From Candidatus Binatia bacterium (GTDB lineage: Bacteria; Desulfobacterota; Binatia; Bin18): a DNA stretch of 64,000 nt. The notes under the pieces are model-generated. The model made no database searches and was not told the origin of the DNA. It was given only the letters and a program-made list of their open reading frames with translations. This document shows positions 2,823 through 48,700 of this stretch, piece by piece. The stretch is taken from positions 192,001 to 256,000 of the forward strand of contig CAXXHG010000043.1 of the NCBI GenBank assembly GCA_963666315.2, given 5' to 3'. Numbering within the stretch: position 1 is the first letter of the stretch; the number at the start of each line of letters is the position of its first letter. Position numbers and translations under genes: made by a program.

Positions 2823-4322
2823 CTAGGAAGTAATTCGCCATCCGCCAAGCTGCTGCCATGGCGTCGCGGTCTGCGCTGACGGCAAGGAAGTCTCTCCAGC
2901 GCTGCCACTGCTGCTTAGACTACGATGCAAGGCAGCGGCTAACACAGCGGCAAGCGTATGCGGCTTTTCGCCGGGCTGCCAGTCTGAAAAGTAATCGGGA
3001 AGAAATGCTGTATGCGTCTCACCTGCAGTAAAGGCGGGATGATCTATGAGTTCGATCAGGAATGGTAAATTCGTGGTCGGACCGAGGATAGCGGTCTGGC
3101 GTAAGGCCCCAGCCATGCGTCTGCGGGACTGCTCACGATCCGTACCCCACGTCGAAATTTTGGCCATCAGGGGATCATAGTGTACGGGCACATCGGTCTG
3201 TGACTCCACGCCCGCGTCTACCCGTACACCGGGCCCGTGCGGTGCATGCCACGCCAAGACTTTTCCAGGCGACGGCAAAAAGCCGTGCGCAGCGTCTTCG
3301 GCATATAGGCGGCACTCTATGGCGTGCCCTGTGAGGTGGACGTCGTCCTGACTGAAGCCCAGCGACTCGCCGGCGGCAATGCGAATTTGTTCGCGCACCA
3401 GATCCAGGCCGGTCACCCATTCGGTAATCGGGTGCTCAACCTGGAGCCGAGCGTTCACCTCAAGGAAGTAAAAGTTGCCTTCAGCGTCGAGAATGAATTC
3501 CACAGTTCCGGCATTATAGTAGCCAGCAGCCTGAGCAATAGTGAGTGCTGCCATCGTCAGCTTGTTACGGAGAGACTGAGACACGGCTGGAGAAGGGGTC
3601 TCTTCTACAATTTTCTGATAGCGCCGCTGAATCGAACACTCACGCTCGCCAAGATGGACCAGATGACCAGTAGTATCTCCCAGAATCTGGACTTCGACAT
3701 GATGCGGCCGTTCGATAAAGCGCTCCACATAGACCGCGCCTTCGGCAAAGGCCGCCAGGGCTTCGCGTTGCGCCGTAGACACAGCCTCCACAAGTTCGGC
3801 TTCCTGACGCACGACACGCATGCCTTTTCCACCGCCCCCCGCCGCAGCTTTGATGAGCACAGGATAACCCAGGGATTTGACTTGTTCGTGCAAAACAGCT
3901 GGATTGGATGCTGGATTCTCAAGGGCGGGAATGACCGGAATGCCGAGCTTGGTTACCGTCTGCCGTGCGAAAATTTTATTGCCAATCGCAGACAGAGCCT
4001 CAGGGGACGGGCCAATAAAGGTCAGGCCGGCGGCGTGCACTGCACGTGCAAACGTCGCATTTTCGGAGAGAAAGCCATAACCGGGATGTATGGCGTCGGC
4101 TCCCGTCCGCTGAGCCGCAGCAAGCACCGCCTCAATATTGAGATAACTCTCACTTGCCAAGGCCGGTCCAACACACACTGCCTCATCTGCTGCATACAGA
4201 TGAGGCGAGGAACGATCCGCCTCCGAGTACACGGCGACTACAGCAATATCCATTTCGCGACACGTCCGCGCAATGCGAGTGGCAATTTCTCCTCTGTTTG
4301 CGATCAGAATTTTTTTGAACAC
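2823..4322 (-). CDS. Biotin carboxylase subunit of an acyl-CoA carboxylase
   Basis: KILIANRGEIA, HPGYGFLSEN, GGGGKGMR, ERECSIQRR, EVNARLQVEHP. Confidence 0.95.
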   Translation of the reverse strand: MFKKILIANRGEIATRIARTCREMDIAVVAVYSEADRSSPHLYAADEAVCVGPALASESYLNIEAVLAAAQRTGADAIHPGYGFLSENATFARAVHAAGLTFIGPSPEALSAIGNKIFARQTVTKLGIPVIPALENPASNPAVLHEQVKSLGYPVLIKAAAGGGGKGMRVVRQEAELVEAVSTAQREALAAFAEGAVYVERFIERPHHVEVQILGDTTGHLVHLGERECSIQRRYQKIVEETPSPAVSQSLRNKLTMAALTIAQAAGYYNAGTVEFILDAEGNFYFLEVNARLQVEHPITEWVTGLDLVREQIRIAAGESLGFSQDDVHLTGHAIECRLYAEDAAHGFLPSPGKVLAWHAPHGPGVRVDAGVESQTDVPVHYDPLMAKISTWGTDREQSRRRMAGALRQTAILGPTTNLPFLIELIDHPAFTAGETHTAFLPDYFSDWQPGEKPHTLAAVLAAALHRSLSSSGSAGETSLPSAQTATPWQQLGGWRITS

Positions 4323-44452: not shown

Positions 44453-45190
44453 TCATTGCACTGAATACGAAAGCAGCTCCGTCACACTCTTGACCGGCGT
44501 GCCTTCACCTTCGCTACTAATAGCTTTGATTAAGCCCACACCTCGGGCATACCACTCGGTGAAGTGGAGGTGGAATTCCGTTGTTTTGTGTCTGGGATCA
44601 GCAACGGTACTGATGGTCATGGTTTCTACTCGCAAACAGTTGTGGAATGTACCGGCGGGAACCTGAACCGCGACCGGATCGATCCACGCGCTGGCTGAGG
44701 CCGTGACATTCTGGCCGCCTTCGAGCGGCCAAGCATTGGTTTGGAACCGGATCTCCCAGCTACGTTCTCCAGTATAGGGTCTCGGCAGGATACGCTCGAC
44801 TCCTTCGCCAAGATTCGTATCCCAGACCTTGTCGCCCTCAGAATCAAGCCACGGATAGCGGAGCAGAAAACCCTCTTTTCGAAGGTAGGCAACCGTACTT
44901 TTCGCCTCGGGGGCCGTATCAGTTAAGGGTTCATATTCCTCAGCGACAACGAACCACGCGCCTTCAAGCAGAGGGAAATCATCGAGAATAACCGTTTCCG
45001 TCATATAGTAGTGATAGTCGCCGCCAGAGAACGTAACCTCATGCGTCCACGTATTGTCCACAGCCAGTGGGAAGAAGTCGTGATTTCCGGACGAAGACGC
45101 CGTCACAGACGAAGACGGCGGCATCAGGACACTGCTCAGCGAGCCGGCAATAAAGAGAGAAACCGCTATTGTGACTATGGAGCGTAGCAT
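44453..45190 (-). CDS. Exported hypothetical protein (VPAGTF-motif beta-rich family)
   Basis: Signal peptide, FFPLAVDNTWT, VPAGTFHNCLRV, EWYARGVGLIK. Confidence 0.7.
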   Translation of the reverse strand: MLRSIVTIAVSLFIAGSLSSVLMPPSSSVTASSSGNHDFFPLAVDNTWTHEVTFSGGDYHYYMTETVILDDFPLLEGAWFVVAEEYEPLTDTAPEAKSTVAYLRKEGFLLRYPWLDSEGDKVWDTNLGEGVERILPRPYTGERSWEIRFQTNAWPLEGGQNVTASASAWIDPVAVQVPAGTFHNCLRVETMTISTVADPRHKTTEFHLHFTEWYARGVGLIKAISSEGEGTPVKSVTELLSYSVQ

Positions 45191-45233
45191 GACACTCGGA
45201 CTGTACCCGCCATGTTTTTTTCATGCAATATTT

Positions 45234-45262
45234 TTCACACAGACGGCCGTGCCGTGTCTTAT
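45234..45262 (+). promoter_or_regulatory. Candidate ECF promoter TTCACACA-N12-GTGTCTTAT
   Basis: Ends 7 nt before an ATG that has no SD; the same motif with the same spacing occurs at 57576-57604. Confidence 0.5.
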
Positions 45263-45269
45263 ATAGAGT

Positions 45270-45827
45270 ATGACGCTTTCTGACCAACAACCCACAACTA
45301 AGAAGTATGATTTTCATGAAATCATAGATCGTCACCAAAGAGCAATCTATTGCTATCTCGTGCGTTGTACCGGTAATATCGACGATGCTCAGGAACTGTT
45401 CCAGGATACTTTTCTTCGCGCATATCGCGCCTACATCAGCCTTTCGCCCGATGCCAATCATCAGGCCTGGCTCTTTCGCATCGCAACCAATCTTGTCAAG
45501 AATTATATCCGCAGCCGTGAACGACGCAGAAAAGTCTTTGTGGATGGAGCAGCACCAGCCGCTTCACACAGCACGAGCTCCAATAGTTCCAATGCGGAAG
45601 ATGATCTCCAGTTACAAGAGACCGCCCATATTTTGCTGAAAGCACTCCAGGCTTTACCGTTCCGGCAAAGAACCGCTCTCATCCAACGCCAATTCGAAGG
45701 TTTAGACTACCGTCTGATCGCCGAAAATCTGGAGTGTTCACAAGACACTGCGCGGGCGCACGTTTATCAGGCACTGCGCAAGTTGCGCATACGCTGGCAC
45801 GAGATAATGAATGATGAAAACGGATGA
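45270..45827 (+). CDS. ECF sigma-70 factor
   Basis: Region 2 DAQELFQDTFLRAY...WLFRIATNL and region 4 LPFRQR...IAENLECSQDTARAHVYQALRKLR; no region 3. Confidence 0.93.
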   Translation: MTLSDQQPTTKKYDFHEIIDRHQRAIYCYLVRCTGNIDDAQELFQDTFLRAYRAYISLSPDANHQAWLFRIATNLVKNYIRSRERRRKVFVDGAAPAASHSTSSNSSNAEDDLQLQETAHILLKALQALPFRQRTALIQRQFEGLDYRLIAENLECSQDTARAHVYQALRKLRIRWHEIMNDENG

Positions 45828-45851
45828 ATACTGAACAAGAGAGGAGACGCC

Positions 45852-46850
45852 ATGCCTACCCAAAATCGTAGCACGAAGCGCAGCACGCTCTCATGTGGAT
45901 TTGCTGAAGACGACCTTATTGCTGAAGCGCTCGGGGAAACGTCTCAAGACGTTCATCAACAGGTACACAGCCATATCACGACCTGCCCTATCTGCGCCCG
46001 GCTTTTGGAACAATACCGGCAGTTACACACCCGGTTGCGCGCTGTGCCGGCTGCTGAGACAGGGCTCGCCTCAGCTCGCCGCGCCCTCGACACTAGCTTG
46101 GTCCTGACCAATCGTCCCCGTCTTTTGCTGAGCGTCTGGGATTCTCCTATCGGTCCCCTACGGATCGGTAGAACGGATAAGGGCGTAGCCTTGGTTGAGT
46201 TTGTTTCTCAGGATGATCCCAAAGACGCAACTGCAGCGCTCGAGAAGAACTTTGCTGTTGAGCAATCCGAGGGCAATATTTCTTCTCTGACCCACAAGCT
46301 CGAAGCGTATTTGAACGGCAAGCGACAAGCGCTTGACTGGGTTATTGATGACGTCCTCATGCGTAGTGATTTTCAGCGCCAAGTCCTCAAGGCCGCGAGT
46401 GAGATTCCGTATGGCACCCTGACGACGTATTTGGGTCTGGCCGAAAGAATCAGTCAGCCAAAAGCCGTCCGGGCGGTCGCCCAGGCGTTGCGCTACAACC
46501 CGGTTCCGATTCAGATTCCTTGTCACCGCATCATCGGCAGTAACGGCAGTCTGACGGGTTATGCAGGAAATCGGATTGCGCTCAAGAGAGATATTCTTGC
46601 TGTTGAAGGCATACCGGTCGTTCAATCAAAAACAGGCTTTGCCATCGCCCAAGACCGGCTCTATGTCGGTCGGCAACAGGACCACATATTTTGCCGACCG
46701 AGCTGTGAAACTTCGAAGGGAATTCGGGCGGGGGATCGTTTATTCATCGCTTCACATACACGAGCAGAAGAAATTGGCTACGCGCCATGTAATATCTGCC
46801 AGCCAGACCTTCATCCGTTACACAAAGAGGCAGAGCCCAGCTTGTTTTGA
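45852..46850 (+). CDS. Fusion protein: zinc anti-sigma (zf-HC2) + Ogt methylated-DNA-protein-cysteine methyltransferase + Ada Zn domain
   Basis: H41-x3-C-x2-C; SPIGPL, FQRQV, IPYG, RAVAQA, IPCHR (C224), TGYAG; C281-x3-C285-x27-C313-x2-C316. Confidence 0.88.
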   Translation: MPTQNRSTKRSTLSCGFAEDDLIAEALGETSQDVHQQVHSHITTCPICARLLEQYRQLHTRLRAVPAAETGLASARRALDTSLVLTNRPRLLLSVWDSPIGPLRIGRTDKGVALVEFVSQDDPKDATAALEKNFAVEQSEGNISSLTHKLEAYLNGKRQALDWVIDDVLMRSDFQRQVLKAASEIPYGTLTTYLGLAERISQPKAVRAVAQALRYNPVPIQIPCHRIIGSNGSLTGYAGNRIALKRDILAVEGIPVVQSKTGFAIAQDRLYVGRQQDHIFCRPSCETSKGIRAGDRLFIASHTRAEEIGYAPCNICQPDLHPLHKEAEPSLF

Positions 46851-46973: not shown

Positions 46974-47834
46974 ATGAAAGCGTTCCGTCCGCTCTTAGCG
47001 CTACTTGTAGCTCCGCTACTTGTAGCCCTCTTCACTAGTGCGGCCTGTGAGCGCCCACCTGACTCGACATCAAAACCGGTTCCCGCCGATCTTCAGCAGG
47101 CAATGACACTCCTTTCCCAGGGGTTGGAAGCCTTTGATACGGAAAAGGTCCTAGCCGTATATGCGGACGACTTCACCAGCGGGACTGGACGGTCCCAGCA
47201 AGGTATAGGAGAGGTTCTGAAGCGGCTTCGAGCCAGCAACGTCACGCTTGCGGTCGAGAAAGTTGACGTCAAAGCTGTAGATAACACCCAGGCAGAGATC
47301 ACAACCTATATGCGTCTGCGCTATAACGACCGTTTCCAGGATATTGGAGAGGGAGAGGTCGCCATCACAGATATCCTGTCCCATATGCTCCGCAAGACGG
47401 ATGGCCGGTGGGGAATCAACGCAGATAAACGGCTGGCCACCTACAGTGAGGGACGGTTCGGCGAGGGTTCGCCAAATGTGACAGTCGAGCTTCCAGACCA
47501 ACTCCCTACAGAGCTTGAGTATATTATAACTGTTTCAGTCCAACCTGAGCGCGCGACCTATTATCGTGTCTCTATTGGAAACTGTCCTGAAGATCCTGGC
47601 ATCCTCCCAACCCCGGATATCGTGACGATGCTGCCCGAGGAGGGGAAGCTAGAAGCACGCTTACTCCCCAATCCACAGGGCTTGAGCGAAATGGTTCGGG
47701 TGACGGTCATTGCCCAGGATTCCGTGGGCAGGCGACTGGGGGCTACGACTATATCCAAACTCGTTCCTGGCAAACAGCCTACGAGGCGACTCAAACAGCC
47801 GCCGCCATCACCTCAGGCCCAGCAGGGCGTGTAA
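46974..47834 (+). CDS. Lipoprotein with NTF2-like domain
   Basis: Lipobox (SAAC); DTEKVLAVYADDF...LRKTDGRWGI. Confidence 0.65.
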   Translation: MKAFRPLLALLVAPLLVALFTSAACERPPDSTSKPVPADLQQAMTLLSQGLEAFDTEKVLAVYADDFTSGTGRSQQGIGEVLKRLRASNVTLAVEKVDVKAVDNTQAEITTYMRLRYNDRFQDIGEGEVAITDILSHMLRKTDGRWGINADKRLATYSEGRFGEGSPNVTVELPDQLPTELEYIITVSVQPERATYYRVSIGNCPEDPGILPTPDIVTMLPEEGKLEARLLPNPQGLSEMVRVTVIAQDSVGRRLGATTISKLVPGKQPTRRLKQPPPSPQAQQGV

Positions 47835-47880: not shown

Positions 47881-48300
47881 ATGTCAATAACAAAAAACAA
47901 GATCCTCGTCCGGCGTTATTTTGAAGAATGCCTCAACCGGGGCAAGCTCGAGACGATCGACGAGCTGATTTCTCCCACCTATGTCAGTCACTACCCCGCA
48001 GGTTATGACCTGGGCGGCGGCCCGGCAGATGTCAAACAGATCGTGGCTTCTGTTCGGAGAGGATTTTCCGATCTCCATTTCACCATAGAAGATTTCGTGG
48101 CCCAGGGTGAGAAGGTCGTGGCACGCTGGACGTTTCGCGGCACGCATGACGGCAATTTTATGGGTATTGCGCCCACAGGCAAGCAGGCCCAAGTCGCCGG
48201 GGTCGCCGTGTATCGGATCGCTGACGGTAAAATCGAAGAAGTCTGGCTGTCGTGGGACGTCTTTGGACTGCTAAAACAGCTTGACGCGCTCCCTTCGTAA
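47881..48300 (+). CDS. SnoaL-like ester cyclase
   Basis: NKILVRRYFEE, GTHDGNFMGIAPTGK, DGKIEEVW. Confidence 0.9.
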   Translation: MSITKNKILVRRYFEECLNRGKLETIDELISPTYVSHYPAGYDLGGGPADVKQIVASVRRGFSDLHFTIEDFVAQGEKVVARWTFRGTHDGNFMGIAPTGKQAQVAGVAVYRIADGKIEEVWLSWDVFGLLKQLDALPS

Positions 48301-48334: not shown

Positions 48335-48700
48335 ATGGTCCATCCTACTCCACGTTTTTTCGCCCATGTGTACCGTTTAGTCGCGAGAGTCCCTAAGGGC
48401 AGGGTCGTCACGTATGGACAGGTGGCAGCAATTCTTGGCGCGCCTCGGGCGGCCCGCGCGGTTGGCACGGCCCTGCGACATCTGCCCCGCCCACTCTCGA
48501 AGAAGGTCCCTTGGCAACGGGTCATTAATGCCTCGGGTGGGATCAGTGCGCGCGGCGATGTTCTCCGTGCGGAGGAACAGCGCTGGATGCTTGAGGAAGA
48601 GGGAATTACATTTAGCCGGGGTGGAAAAATCGATCTTGAGCAAGATCGCTGGTCTGGTCCGAAGAATTGGAAGGTGCCGCGGTGGAAAACAAAACTGTAG
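48335..48700 (+). CDS. Alkyltransferase-like (ATL) protein
   Basis: VPKGRVVTYGQVA, ARAVG, PWQRVIN (Trp replaces the catalytic Cys), LEEEGI. Confidence 0.9.
   Translation: MVHPTPRFFAHVYRLVARVPKGRVVTYGQVAAILGAPRAARAVGTALRHLPRPLSKKVPWQRVINASGGISARGDVLRAEEQRWMLEEEGITFSRGGKIDLEQDRWSGPKNWKVPRWKTKL

Follow-up and report, generated by a model that had tools for sequence, protein, structure and literature searches.

In a 64,000-nt stretch of DNA from a Candidatus Binatia bacterium (hereafter, the window), we identified a pair of adjacent genes that we interpret, with modest confidence, as encoding an ECF sigma factor and a cognate soluble anti-sigma factor that doubles as a suicide DNA-alkylation repair protein, such that alkyl transfer inactivates the anti-sigma factor. 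The domain architecture of the second protein, its conservation, the operon linkage of the pair and the autoregulatory motif are supported by computation. The ECF-type sigma factor gene (45270..45827, + strand, ATG start) encodes a 185-aa protein that contains regions 2 and 4 only, with Pfam matches to Sigma70_r2 (residues 19-86, 6.7e-14) and Sigma70_r4_2 (residues 121-172, 3.3e-12) and none to region 3; this region content and length are those of ECF (group 4) sigma factors, and the protein scores 87.7 bits against the NCBIfam model TIGR02937 (cut-off 42.9). Exactly 24 nt further on, as the initial annotation had it, begins an ORF for a 332-aa fusion protein (45852..46850, + strand, ATG start), and both ORFs were recovered at these positions. 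The intergenic gap contains GAGAGGAG (45839..45846, + strand), which reads as a Shine-Dalgarno-like element 5 nt ahead of the fusion ATG.

The initial annotation divided the fusion protein into an N-terminal zinc anti-sigma motif, an Ogt domain and an Ada metal-binding domain. Pfam and an alignment to N-Ada bear out the latter two parts, and all the residues that had been named are present in the protein. The O6-alkylguanine-DNA alkyltransferase (Ogt/AGT) module, comprising N and C domains, spans residues 94-254 (46131..46613, + strand), carries the PCHR motif with C224, and matches Methyltransf_1N (residues 94-162, 5.4e-7) and DNA_binding_1 (residues 173-254, 1.3e-28). The fusion protein also scores 93.9 bits against the NCBIfam ogt superfamily model (cut-off 46.4) and is over the cut-off for TIGR00589, but fails the bifunctional Ada equivalog NF011964 (92.6 bits, cut-off 345) and is thus not filed as Ada. 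In Foldseek searches, the Ogt part matched M. tuberculosis OGT (4wxd, 1.4e-11) as well as E. coli Ada-C (1sfe), with target-normalised TM-scores of 0.80-0.89 against solved OGTs. From our reading of the alignment, H225, E252 and Y193 of the fusion are the probable counterparts of the catalytic residues H146, E172 and Y114 of human AGT (PMC10779285, in excerpt).

The Ada-type four-Cys metal-binding (methylphosphotriester acceptor) domain follows at residues 266-319 (46647..46808, + strand), where Ada_Zn_binding is matched at 4.3e-9 (36.7 bits, cut-off 23; profile positions 13-65 of 65). C281, C285, C313 and C316 align with C38, C42, C69 and C72 of E. coli N-Ada (1adn_A, E 1.1e-5), placing C281 on C38, and Foldseek aligned 54 columns of this part to 1u8b_A with an rmsd of 2.0. 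C224, the four Ada-type cysteines and PCHR are retained in 201/201 sequences, a set that consists of the window, 80 loci and 120 database proteins and whose members are not independent; the Ogt catalytic residues are likewise invariant across it. Alkyl transfer from DNA to the fusion cysteines is a prediction. No AraC/HTH family was found in the protein (Pfam, E <= 0.01), and its maximal Kyte-Doolittle 19-residue mean is 1.23, so that it has no TM helix; both absences had been claimed at the outset. Furthermore, the fusion is the sole Ada_Zn_binding match in its own genome (92% complete), and hence no AraC-type Ada was found there.

A putative zinc anti-sigma (class I ASD-like) domain occupies residues 1-92 (45852..46127, + strand), with C15, H41, C45 and C48 as candidate Zn ligands. 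Of the three Pfam families that the initial annotation expected, DNA_binding_1 and Ada_Zn_binding were found, but zf-HC2 remained under the cut-off in this protein (14.8 bits, E 0.03, cut-off 22.2; profile positions 4-35 of 35). The same family is above the cut-off in 6/10 distant two-module relatives, and PF13490 is annotated on one close homologue in precomputed data. The four candidate ligands are invariant in a 26-sequence alignment with identity down to 36% and are retained, as are all nine Cys/His, in 195 of the 201 sequences; among the six exceptions, four are N-terminally truncated, one lacks C15 only and one has C48Y. Cys, not His, is kept as the first ligand in 196/201. As judged from these alignments, the conserved Cys/His pattern is far beyond chance.

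The predicted structure of the N-terminal domain (pLDDT 79.5) comprises helices at residues 19-27, 32-44, 46-64 and 69-85. When its profile was compared with PDB sequences, ChrR was the best match (E 0.023), followed by DdvA, RsiW and RslA at E 0.15-0.7, and the ten highest-ranking Foldseek matches were all ChrR, RslA or RsiW chains, yet at E >= 1. In a structure search against 48,161 representatives, the top five were RslA (Z 6.0), RsiW (5.4), MucA (5.1), RskA (4.6) and PupR (4.6), values modest enough to mirror a common helical arrangement of small domains. By its best structural and profile matches, the domain looks like an anti-sigma domain.

The initial annotation further proposed modelling the sigma factor with the N-terminal domain. 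In the predicted complex, this domain sits between sigma regions 2 and 4, with ipSAE values of 0.75, 0.76 and 0.76, whereas the best of 3 controls reached 0.00; contact agreement between runs was at least 82% and partner pLDDT at least 81. The ipSAE mark is attained by 58/80 solved complexes and 2/110 mismatched pairs, a calibration set from which our run differs in its custom alignments and a zinc ion. On the sigma side, the modelled interface involves residues 15-53 and 118-177, and on the anti-sigma side, residues 19-29, 54-59 and 61-86; the modelled sigma-2-binding helix abuts the Ogt N-domain, running straight into it at residues 87-90. Since solved ECF/anti-sigma complexes exist, the pass against all three controls may reflect family likeness. 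Sigma binding by the fusion N-terminal domain is, at the level of this model, predicted.

Conserved adjacency to ECF genes, which had been set beforehand as one of the tests of the proposal, was found in all 77 evaluable loci out of 80, each having a co-directional sigma gene immediately upstream; the matches in the three non-evaluable loci are no more than 120 nt from a contig end. These loci are labelled Binatia, Methylomirabilota/Rokubacteria and others. The sigma and fusion genes overlap by 4 nt in 37/76 pairs and by 20 nt in 18/76 (start codons chosen automatically), and overlaps are frequent in sigma/anti-sigma gene pairs. The sigma and fusion identities drop in step, from 85/90% down to 38/36%. 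In a quick tree, sigma factors partnered with three-module fusions cluster together (SH-aLRT 94), but the node uniting all Ogt-linked sigma factors has a support of only 47, and therefore a single origin of the ECF-Ogt pairing is not supported.

Distant relatives combine the zinc anti-sigma domain with Ogt, lack the Ada domain, and still lie behind an ECF sigma gene; thus, the Ada cysteine is not a universal trigger of the wider class. ECF adjacency varies with the form of the Ogt protein, being found in 5/5 loci where the N-terminal domain is full, in 22/26 evaluable loci where it is partial, and in only 7/23 where the Ogt core stands alone. The system is rare and patchy among the genomes searched: eight of 301 sampled genomes of the same phylum, the source genome included, contain a match at E <= 1e-35, and five of these eight matches start at query residue 14 or earlier.

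Together, these observations bear on the reading that the N-terminal domain is a structural zinc finger of the repair enzyme, and that the sigma factor drives the repair gene but is controlled elsewhere. We consider this highly improbable. The zf-HC2 score under the Pfam cut-off would fit it, as would the treatment of ECF122, a group with Ogt neighbours, among those without an anti-sigma factor (PMC8999054, in excerpt). However, anti-sigma domains are the best structural and profile matches of the N-terminal domain, zf-HC2 passes in most of the distant relatives examined, the modelled complex clears its controls, the sigma and fusion genes overlap in many of the loci, and ECF adjacency follows the N-terminal extension, all of which argue against it.

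A candidate sigma-dependent, autoregulatory promoter lies ahead of the sigma gene (45233..45259, + strand), with TTTCAC at 45233-45238, a 15-nt spacer and GTGTCT at 45254-45259. The motif TTTCAC-N15-GGTGTCT, which we infer to work as a promoter, is present ahead of the sigma gene in 70/78 upstream regions. A PWM built from 68 distinct sites scores the sigma promoter at 33.5 bits in the 4.99-Mb genome of origin, where the runner-up reaches 21.7 bits, making it the sole strong match. The sigma ATG is just 10 nt past the motif, a distance that makes a leaderless or almost leaderless mRNA probable. None of the eleven sites above 14 bits in this genome is ahead of a recognisable alkylation-repair gene, and none of its stand-alone ogt, alkB-like, hyp286, SnoaL and ATL genes (the last three described below) has a motif site of its own. 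Across five further genomes, 12 sites matched the strict pattern, compared with 3 for a reversed control. Four of the 12 are the sigma factor's own promoter; two lie just 3' of the fusion gene, ahead of a conserved 126-aa protein without a Pfam family; three precede, one each, arginase-family, DUF2652 and DinB_2 genes; and of the last three, one precedes what appears to be an internal start within a long ORF and two have no ORF behind them. A classical ada-like regulon was dropped from consideration, the predicted regulon holding no other classical alkylation-repair gene.

Three genes downstream of the fusion gene are possibly co-transcribed with it, and no convincing + strand terminator was found between 46850 and 48700. 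The first is a 286-aa ORF (hyp286; 46974..47834, + strand), whose product has a lipoprotein-like signal peptide and matches no Pfam family, and homologues of which are downstream in 28/80 loci, every one with Binatia-type synteny. The second (47881..48300, + strand) encodes a SnoaL-like protein of 139 aa (Pfam SnoaL, 1.7e-39) and is present in 27/80 loci. The third (48335..48700, + strand) encodes a 121-aa alkyltransferase-like (ATL) protein (Pfam DNA_binding_1, 5.1e-25), that is, an Ogt DNA-binding domain in which PWQR replaces PCHR; a separate ATL copy lies 3' of the fusion gene in 30/80 loci, all within L001-L037.

The conserved zinc site itself offers an alternative signal. RsrA-SigR is a further pair of a zinc anti-sigma factor and an ECF sigma factor, and the fusion could work in the same manner, with the N-terminal Cys-His-Cys-Cys site sensing oxidants or thiol-reactive electrophiles, losing zinc and freeing the sigma factor, and with Ogt and Ada as non-signalling repair cargo, fused to ensure joint production with the anti-sigma factor; this we deem unlikely, if deserving of attention. 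Such a site could by itself sense these agents, the first ligand is nearly always Cys rather than His, and the ligands of RsrA, which we take to be C11, H37, C41 and C44, would have the same C-x25-H-x3-C-x2-C spacing as those of the fusion. Soluble class I anti-sigma domains are also enriched in zinc motifs, fitting redox sensing, but zinc may also have a solely structural role in anti-sigma domains, RsiW being an example (both from PMC7406223, in excerpt). Moreover, every catalytic residue is retained in the fusion in 201/201 sequences, down to 36% identity, and the repair operon itself is the sole conserved output; in the genomes searched, the motif preceded no thiol-redox genes, save one DinB_2 gene in one genome. 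Operon co-expression already supplies the repair protein, and redox sensing at the zinc site would therefore leave the covalent fusion unexplained.

We favour instead inactivation of the anti-sigma factor by the repair reaction, with the following sequence of events, whose alkylation-dependent steps are all conjectural. In the resting state, residues ~15-86 would fold into a class I anti-sigma domain of four helices with bound zinc, which, lodged between sigma regions 2 and 4, would keep the sigma factor away from RNA polymerase. When DNA is methylated, C224 of the fusion would irreversibly accept a methyl group from O6-methylguanine or O4-methylthymine, or C281 would accept one from a methylphosphotriester, or both reactions would take place; alternatively, the agent might attack the zinc thiolate directly. 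The alkylated fusion would then lose its hold on the sigma factor, either through a shape change beside the sigma-2-binding helix at the Ogt N-domain or through destabilisation and degradation. Methylation of the N-Ada cysteine is what switches E. coli Ada (PMC7617703, in excerpt), and the alkylated AGT of humans, mice, yeast and archaea 'opens up' and is then degraded (PMC10779285, in excerpt). The free sigma factor would transcribe from its own TTTCAC-N15-GGTGTCT promoter, boosting the supply of sigma factor and of new repair/anti-sigma protein; the downstream ATL gene may be induced as well in this lineage. Once the lesions are gone, new unalkylated anti-sigma factor would recapture the sigma factor, yielding an adaptive response that is stoichiometric and resets itself.

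The fusion might also be a true anti-sigma factor for which covalent modification is not the signal, the sigma factor being released by competition or allostery when the Ogt/Ada domains bind DNA or lesions, by regulated proteolysis triggered otherwise, or by titration via changes in transcription. Both repair domains are DNA-binding modules, the sigma-2-binding helix adjoins the Ogt N-domain in the model, and most evaluable loci in which Ogt has just a short N-terminal extension (the 22/26 given above) likewise have the Ogt gene behind an ECF sigma gene. The acceptor cysteines, however, are conserved in all sequences, although lesion binding without transfer would not need them, and the neighbouring ATL protein manages without its cysteine; we therefore regard release of this kind as improbable.

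Returning to the alkyl-transfer reading, a broader version appears quite possible, if short of probable: suicide alkyl transfer would be the direct trigger, via C224 and here also via C281, each repaired lesion would free one sigma factor and order one replacement repair protein, and Ogt proteins extended at the N-terminus would supply the anti-sigma factors 'missing' from ECF-Ogt pairs, those of the ECF122 type included. The conserved neighbour of ECF122 is a 6-O-methylguanine DNA methyltransferase, and a 2022 review, which gives an example from Cellulomonas and takes the group from the classification of Casas-Pastor et al. 2021, lists it as lacking an anti-sigma factor and as having an unknown mechanism (PMC8999054, in excerpt); the main text of Casas-Pastor 2021 (PMC7826278) contains no mention of ECF122, methyltransferases or DNA repair. 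The sigma factor of the window has the methyltransferase neighbour that characterises ECF122, a comparison made by the description of that group alone. Unlike ECF122 as listed, the Ogt protein here bears zinc anti-sigma and Ada domains, and the loci are labelled Binatia and Methylomirabilota/Rokubacteria. If confirmed, the broader version would explain an ECF group listed without an anti-sigma factor or known mechanism.

The initial annotation knew of no description of this arrangement. That holds insofar as no anti-sigma factor with DNA-repair alkyl-acceptor domains was found described in the literature searched, which lay mostly outside subscription journals, and the available portion of a review of the alkyltransferase family does not mention sigma factors (PMC10779285); it does not hold for the ECF-Ogt neighbourhood, already listed as ECF122 (PMC8999054, in excerpt). 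If our interpretation is correct, the fusion would be the first case of an irreversible DNA-repair reaction inactivating an anti-sigma factor, and two genes and one promoter would make up a compact, orthogonal switch inducible by alkylation. In textbooks, a repair protein doubling as a sensor is exemplified by the adaptive response to alkylation, for which, to our knowledge, all described cases use AraC-type activators. Perhaps only ~17% of genomes conserve an Ada of the E. coli type, and the question of how others cope has been asked (PMC7617703, in excerpt). If the broader version holds, ECF-Ogt pairs would form a widespread sigma-release alkylation response in lineages without AraC-type Ada.

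Among known systems, the zinc anti-sigma factors with solved ECF complexes, ChrR-SigE (2q1z, 2z2s), RslA-SigL (3hug) and RsiW-SigW (5wuq), share with the fusion the HxxxCxxC motif and have a four-helix domain, as the fusion does in its predicted structure, and in all of them the anti-sigma gene is just 3' of the sigma gene and the domain is sandwiched between sigma regions 2 and 4, an arrangement that is modelled in the case of the fusion. ChrR, furthermore, joins a soluble anti-sigma domain to a C-terminal sensor domain, as in the layout of the fusion. In the fusion, the C-terminal partner is a pair of DNA-repair alkyl-acceptor domains, and the presumed signal is irreversible alkylation instead of oxidation or singlet oxygen. 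B. subtilis AdaA/AdaB and M. tuberculosis AdaA-AlkA/Ogt, which are split or re-fused Ada systems, show Ada modules shuffled among proteins of different bacteria (PMC7617703, in excerpt). These systems keep an AraC-type activator and, unlike the fusion, are not known to use a sigma/anti-sigma pair. E. coli Ada contains the same two suicide methyl-acceptor modules and follows the logic that we propose for the fusion, in which the repair protein is the sensor that induces its own gene. However, E. coli Ada has an AraC-type HTH, which the fusion lacks, and the module order is reversed: in Ada, the four-Cys domain comes first and Ogt is C-terminal, whereas in the fusion Ogt is ahead of the Ada zinc domain. 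Methylated Ada binds a promoter, and the output of the fusion would be the release of a sequestered sigma factor; the same two suicide acceptor domains would thus be wired to another device, an ECF sigma factor held by a zinc anti-sigma domain.

The ECF-type sigma factor (185 aa; window positions 45270–45827, + strand; Pfam Sigma70_r2 and Sigma70_r4_2), which passes only the general sigma70-ECF model of NCBIfam, is encoded 24 nt ahead of the gene for a 332-aa three-module protein (45852–46850, + strand), with the intergenic GAGAGGAG located 5 nt ahead of the ATG. Pfam places Methyltransf_1N at residues 94–162 of this fusion, DNA_binding_1 at 173–254 (E = 1.3e-28) and Ada_Zn_binding at 266–319 (E = 4.3e-9) and detects no AraC-type HTH, and the protein fails the bifunctional Ada equivalog of NCBIfam (92.6 bits vs a cut-off of 345). 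The fusion has no membrane helix, given that its highest 19-residue hydropathy mean is only 1.23. In the alignment of the C-terminal part with the N-Ada chain 1adn_A (E = 1.1e-5), FCRPSC falls on residues 37–42 and PCNICQP on residues 68–74; thus, C281, C285, C313 and C316 correspond to C38, C42, C69 and C72 of N-Ada. The ORF coordinates, the gap, the Pfam domains and the individual residues therefore bear out the initial annotation, which had described a sigma gene paired with an anti-sigma/Ogt/Ada fusion that carries the four-cysteine Ada domain and lacks both a transmembrane helix and an AraC HTH. The AlphaFold2 model of the full-length fusion (mean pLDDT 87.2, pTM 0.69) matches solved OGTs (4wxd at 1.4e-11) as well as Escherichia coli Ada-C (1sfe), and its last part resembles methylated N-Ada bound to DNA (1u8b_A; 54 columns, rmsd 2.0, 33% identity).

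The N-terminal module (residues 1–92) contains C15 and H41-x3-C45-x2-C48. Among the Pfam families that the initial annotation expected, DNA_binding_1 and Ada_Zn_binding were recovered, and zf-HC2 remained below the cut-off in the fusion (14.8 vs 22.2 bits, E = 0.03, profile positions 4–35 of 35); zf-HC2 did exceed the cut-off in 6 of 10 distant relatives retrieved by a search of 1.84 billion proteins. With a profile of 26 N-terminal domains, the best solved sequence was ChrR (2q1z_B, E = 0.023), with HxxxCxxC aligned, followed by DdvA (0.15), RsiW (0.62) and RslA (0.7), all weak matches. Modelled alone, the domain folds into four helices (pLDDT 79.5), and the top ten Foldseek rows, none of them with E below 1, belong to ChrR, RslA and RsiW. 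In a ranking of 48,161 representative chains that did not depend on Foldseek, the top five were all cytoplasmic domains of anti-sigma factors (Z = 6.0 for RslA, 5.4 for RsiW, 5.1 for MucA, and 4.6 for both RskA and PupR), with Z values that are middling for helical domains. The profile, Foldseek and structure rankings, along with zf-HC2 in the relatives, point to an anti-sigma domain and speak against a fusion devoid of any anti-sigma function, which we regard as highly improbable.

The sigma factor and residues 1–92 of the fusion were folded together with a zinc ion, using alignments from 26 paired loci, and the three runs yielded ipSAE values of 0.75, 0.76 and 0.76, compared with 0.00 for the best of three controls, with contact agreement of at least 82% and partner pLDDT of at least 81. 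In the calibration, from which the custom alignments and the zinc ion depart, 58 of 80 solved complexes and 2 of 110 mismatched pairs attain the ipSAE mark; similar complexes have already been solved, so that the pass may reflect likeness only. The modelled interface involves residues 15–53 (region 2) and 118–177 (region 4) of the sigma factor and residues 19–29, 54–59 and 61–86 of the anti-sigma domain, the arrangement known for class I anti-sigma domains. The predicted complex supports sigma binding by the N-terminal domain. Outside the confidently modelled interface residues lies C156 of sigma region 4 (LECSQDTARAHV, window 45735–45737), a cysteine shared without exception by the 26 aligned sigmas.

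Of 8000 candidates scored in a word-indexed search with the fusion, 1094 proteins had E ≤ 1e-3. The best 120 of these are mostly 319–341 aa long, with query coverage of 92–100%, except for four of 224–267 aa (67–74%), and the sole name borne by the named ones is methylated-DNA--protein-cysteine methyltransferase. When each species was represented by one genome, scanning yielded 143 relatives, and the best 80 (loci L001–L080) are labelled by record title chiefly as Binatia and Methylomirabilota/Rokubacteria MAGs, with single Polyangiaceae, Baltobacteraceae and others. Several MAG records under the title “uncultured Enterobacteriaceae” or “Klebsiella pneumoniae” (L001, L002, L023, L026, L028 and L030) contain the locus with Binatia-type synteny and 53–90% identity to the window, and these titles appear to be wrong. 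Conservation is complete for the Ogt residues and the four Ada cysteines (201 of 201 sequences, which are not independent), and the four N-terminal ligands are present in 195, the six exceptions being four N-terminal truncations, one loss of C15 only and one C48Y substitution. The system is rare and patchy among the genomes searched; within the host phylum, 8 genomes in a sample of 301, including the host genome itself, have a match at E ≤ 1e-35. In two genomes of the same class, the matches (G209:C23:205071–205826 and G268:C9:20376–21104) span only query residues 72–328 (Ogt plus the zinc domain of Ada) and are part of open frames 336–345 aa long, one with an internal TGA, and the N-termini of these proteins may be divergent or different.

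Directly upstream of the fusion, 77 of the 80 loci carry a sigma homolog in the same orientation, and in the other three the match begins within 120 nt of a contig end; hence, the conserved adjacency to ECF genes that the initial annotation proposed to survey is found in 77 of 77 evaluable loci. With start codons chosen automatically, 37 of 76 pairs show a 4-nt overlap between the genes and 18 a 20-nt overlap. In locus L051 (3473–4981), the sigma homolog is split between two frames (3497–3787 and 3789–3998), and a 502-aa open frame spans the sigma region through the fusion; this is a frameshift or an error of assembly, or else the sigma and the anti-sigma are naturally fused. In a quick maximum-likelihood tree, sigmas associated with three-module fusions cluster (SH-aLRT 94), and the deeper node that would unite all Ogt-linked sigmas has a support of only 47. 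The pair is the sole unit common to the phyla. A lipoprotein-like ORF (46974–47834 in the window), a SnoaL gene (47881–48300) and a separate ATL gene follow the fusion in 28, 27 and, by our reading of the neighborhood table, 30 of the 80 loci, respectively, and are retained only where synteny is of the Binatia type. The window ATL candidate is a 121-aa Ogt-domain protein (48335–48700, + strand), so classified because PWQR replaces PCHR. Divergent from the sigma gene is a 245-aa ORF (44453–45190, − strand) with a hydrophobic N-terminal stretch and a weak, below-cut-off DUF3108-like match (E = 4.5e-4), which is kept beside the sigma gene in 33 of the 80 loci.

Of 78 regions upstream of the sigma gene, 70 contain the motif TTTCAC-N15-G(G/T)GTCT(T); in the window, it occupies positions 45233–45259, with the sigma ATG 10 nt further on. 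By our reading of the alignment, the start codon lies about 8–12 nt past the −10-like GTCT in most loci, a proximity which suggests that the sigma mRNA is leaderless or nearly so. One Binatia subgroup (L081, L082) has the motif about 165–185 nt upstream of the sigma ATG, implying a long leader. The weight-matrix score of the window site is 33.5 bits, the runner-up in the 4.99-Mb genome scoring 21.7; none of the 11 genome sites above 14 bits precedes a recognizable alkylation-repair gene, and no separate motif site belongs to the stand-alone ogt, to the alkB-like gene or to any of the three downstream genes. There is no convincing + strand terminator between the fusion and the ATL gene, so that co-transcription over this interval is possible. 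The strict pattern has 12 matches in five other genomes vs 3 for a reversed control. By this distribution of sites, the one universal target is the sigma's own operon. Two Rokubacteria-labelled genomes (L084, L091) carry a second motif copy directly after the fusion, 1.8–2.5 kb past the first, ahead of the gene for a conserved protein of 126 aa, which has a hydrophobic N-terminus and matches no Pfam family (L084, 1096–1473, − strand; L091, 1551–1928, + strand).

Other than the fusion, the host genome (92% complete) contains no Ada_Zn_binding match, and no Ada of the AraC type was detected in it; Ogt domains are encoded by three genes (the fusion, the ATL and a stand-alone copy on contig C18), and one AlkB-like gene is present. 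We lean, if only slightly, towards reading the pair as an alkylation-sensing sigma switch, an interpretation already put forward in the initial annotation, of which the structural and linkage parts are supported and the alkylation trigger is what we infer. The sigma factor would be held by the zinc anti-sigma domain until the fusion is inactivated or destabilized because C224 and/or C281 has irreversibly accepted a methyl group or, alternatively, because a zinc thiolate has been alkylated directly; the freed sigma would then transcribe its own operon, and fresh unalkylated fusion protein would close the loop. Two reviews give precedents for both proposed consequences of methyl transfer: N-Ada methylation acts as a switch in E. 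coli (PMC7617703), and in several organisms AGT, once alkylated, opens up and is broken down (PMC10779285). The domain could instead be an RsrA-like thiol or redox sensor with Ogt and Ada as repair cargo, but the covalent fusion and the strict conservation of all acceptor cysteines favor signal coupling over mere co-expression, and we consider the cargo reading unlikely. Signaling without covalent modification of the fusion seems to us less likely still.

A profile of residues 1–172 retrieved 2478 proteins at E ≤ 1e-3, 167 at ≤ 1e-10 and 32 at ≤ 1e-30, including relatives of 243–275 aa that combine the zinc anti-sigma domain with Ogt, lack the Ada domain and have invariant HxxxCxxC and PCHR. 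A metagenome scan seeded with these two-module relatives gave 80 Ogt loci (L098–L177), a sample biased towards relatives of the query; an ECF-like sigma occurs within 400 nt upstream in 34 of the 54 with at least 700 nt of upstream sequence, namely 5 of 5 with the full anti-sigma domain matched, 22 of 26 with only a partial N-terminal extension and 7 of 23 with only an Ogt core match. The association of ECF sigmas with Ogt proteins extended at the N-terminus is thus a broader phenomenon, of which the three-module form is the most explicit version, and because relatives without the Ada domain are also ECF-linked, the Ada cysteine cannot serve as the universal trigger of this wider class.

In the literature searched, we came across no account in which an anti-sigma domain is joined to Ogt or Ada. 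A review (PMC8999054), citing Casas-Pastor et al. 2021, lists 6-O-methylguanine DNA methyltransferases as the conserved neighbor of ECF122 and counts this group, with a Cellulomonas example, as one “without cognate anti-sigma factors” whose mechanism is unknown; ECF122 is absent from the main text of Casas-Pastor et al. 2021, the supplements of which may describe the group further. Many metagenome loci (for instance, L102, L103 and L109) encode Ogt with only a short N-terminal extension, roughly 30–40 aa and lacking HxxxCxxC, directly behind an ECF-like sigma (the 22 of 26 evaluable loci given above). Such pairs may be of the ECF122 type, with an extension that may act as a minimal helix for sigma binding. 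With ECF122 reported next to such methyltransferases, the ECF–Ogt gene neighborhood is already in print, and what appears to be new, as far as we searched, is the anti-sigma domain inside the Ogt protein, the Ada domain, the promoter and the proposed switch.
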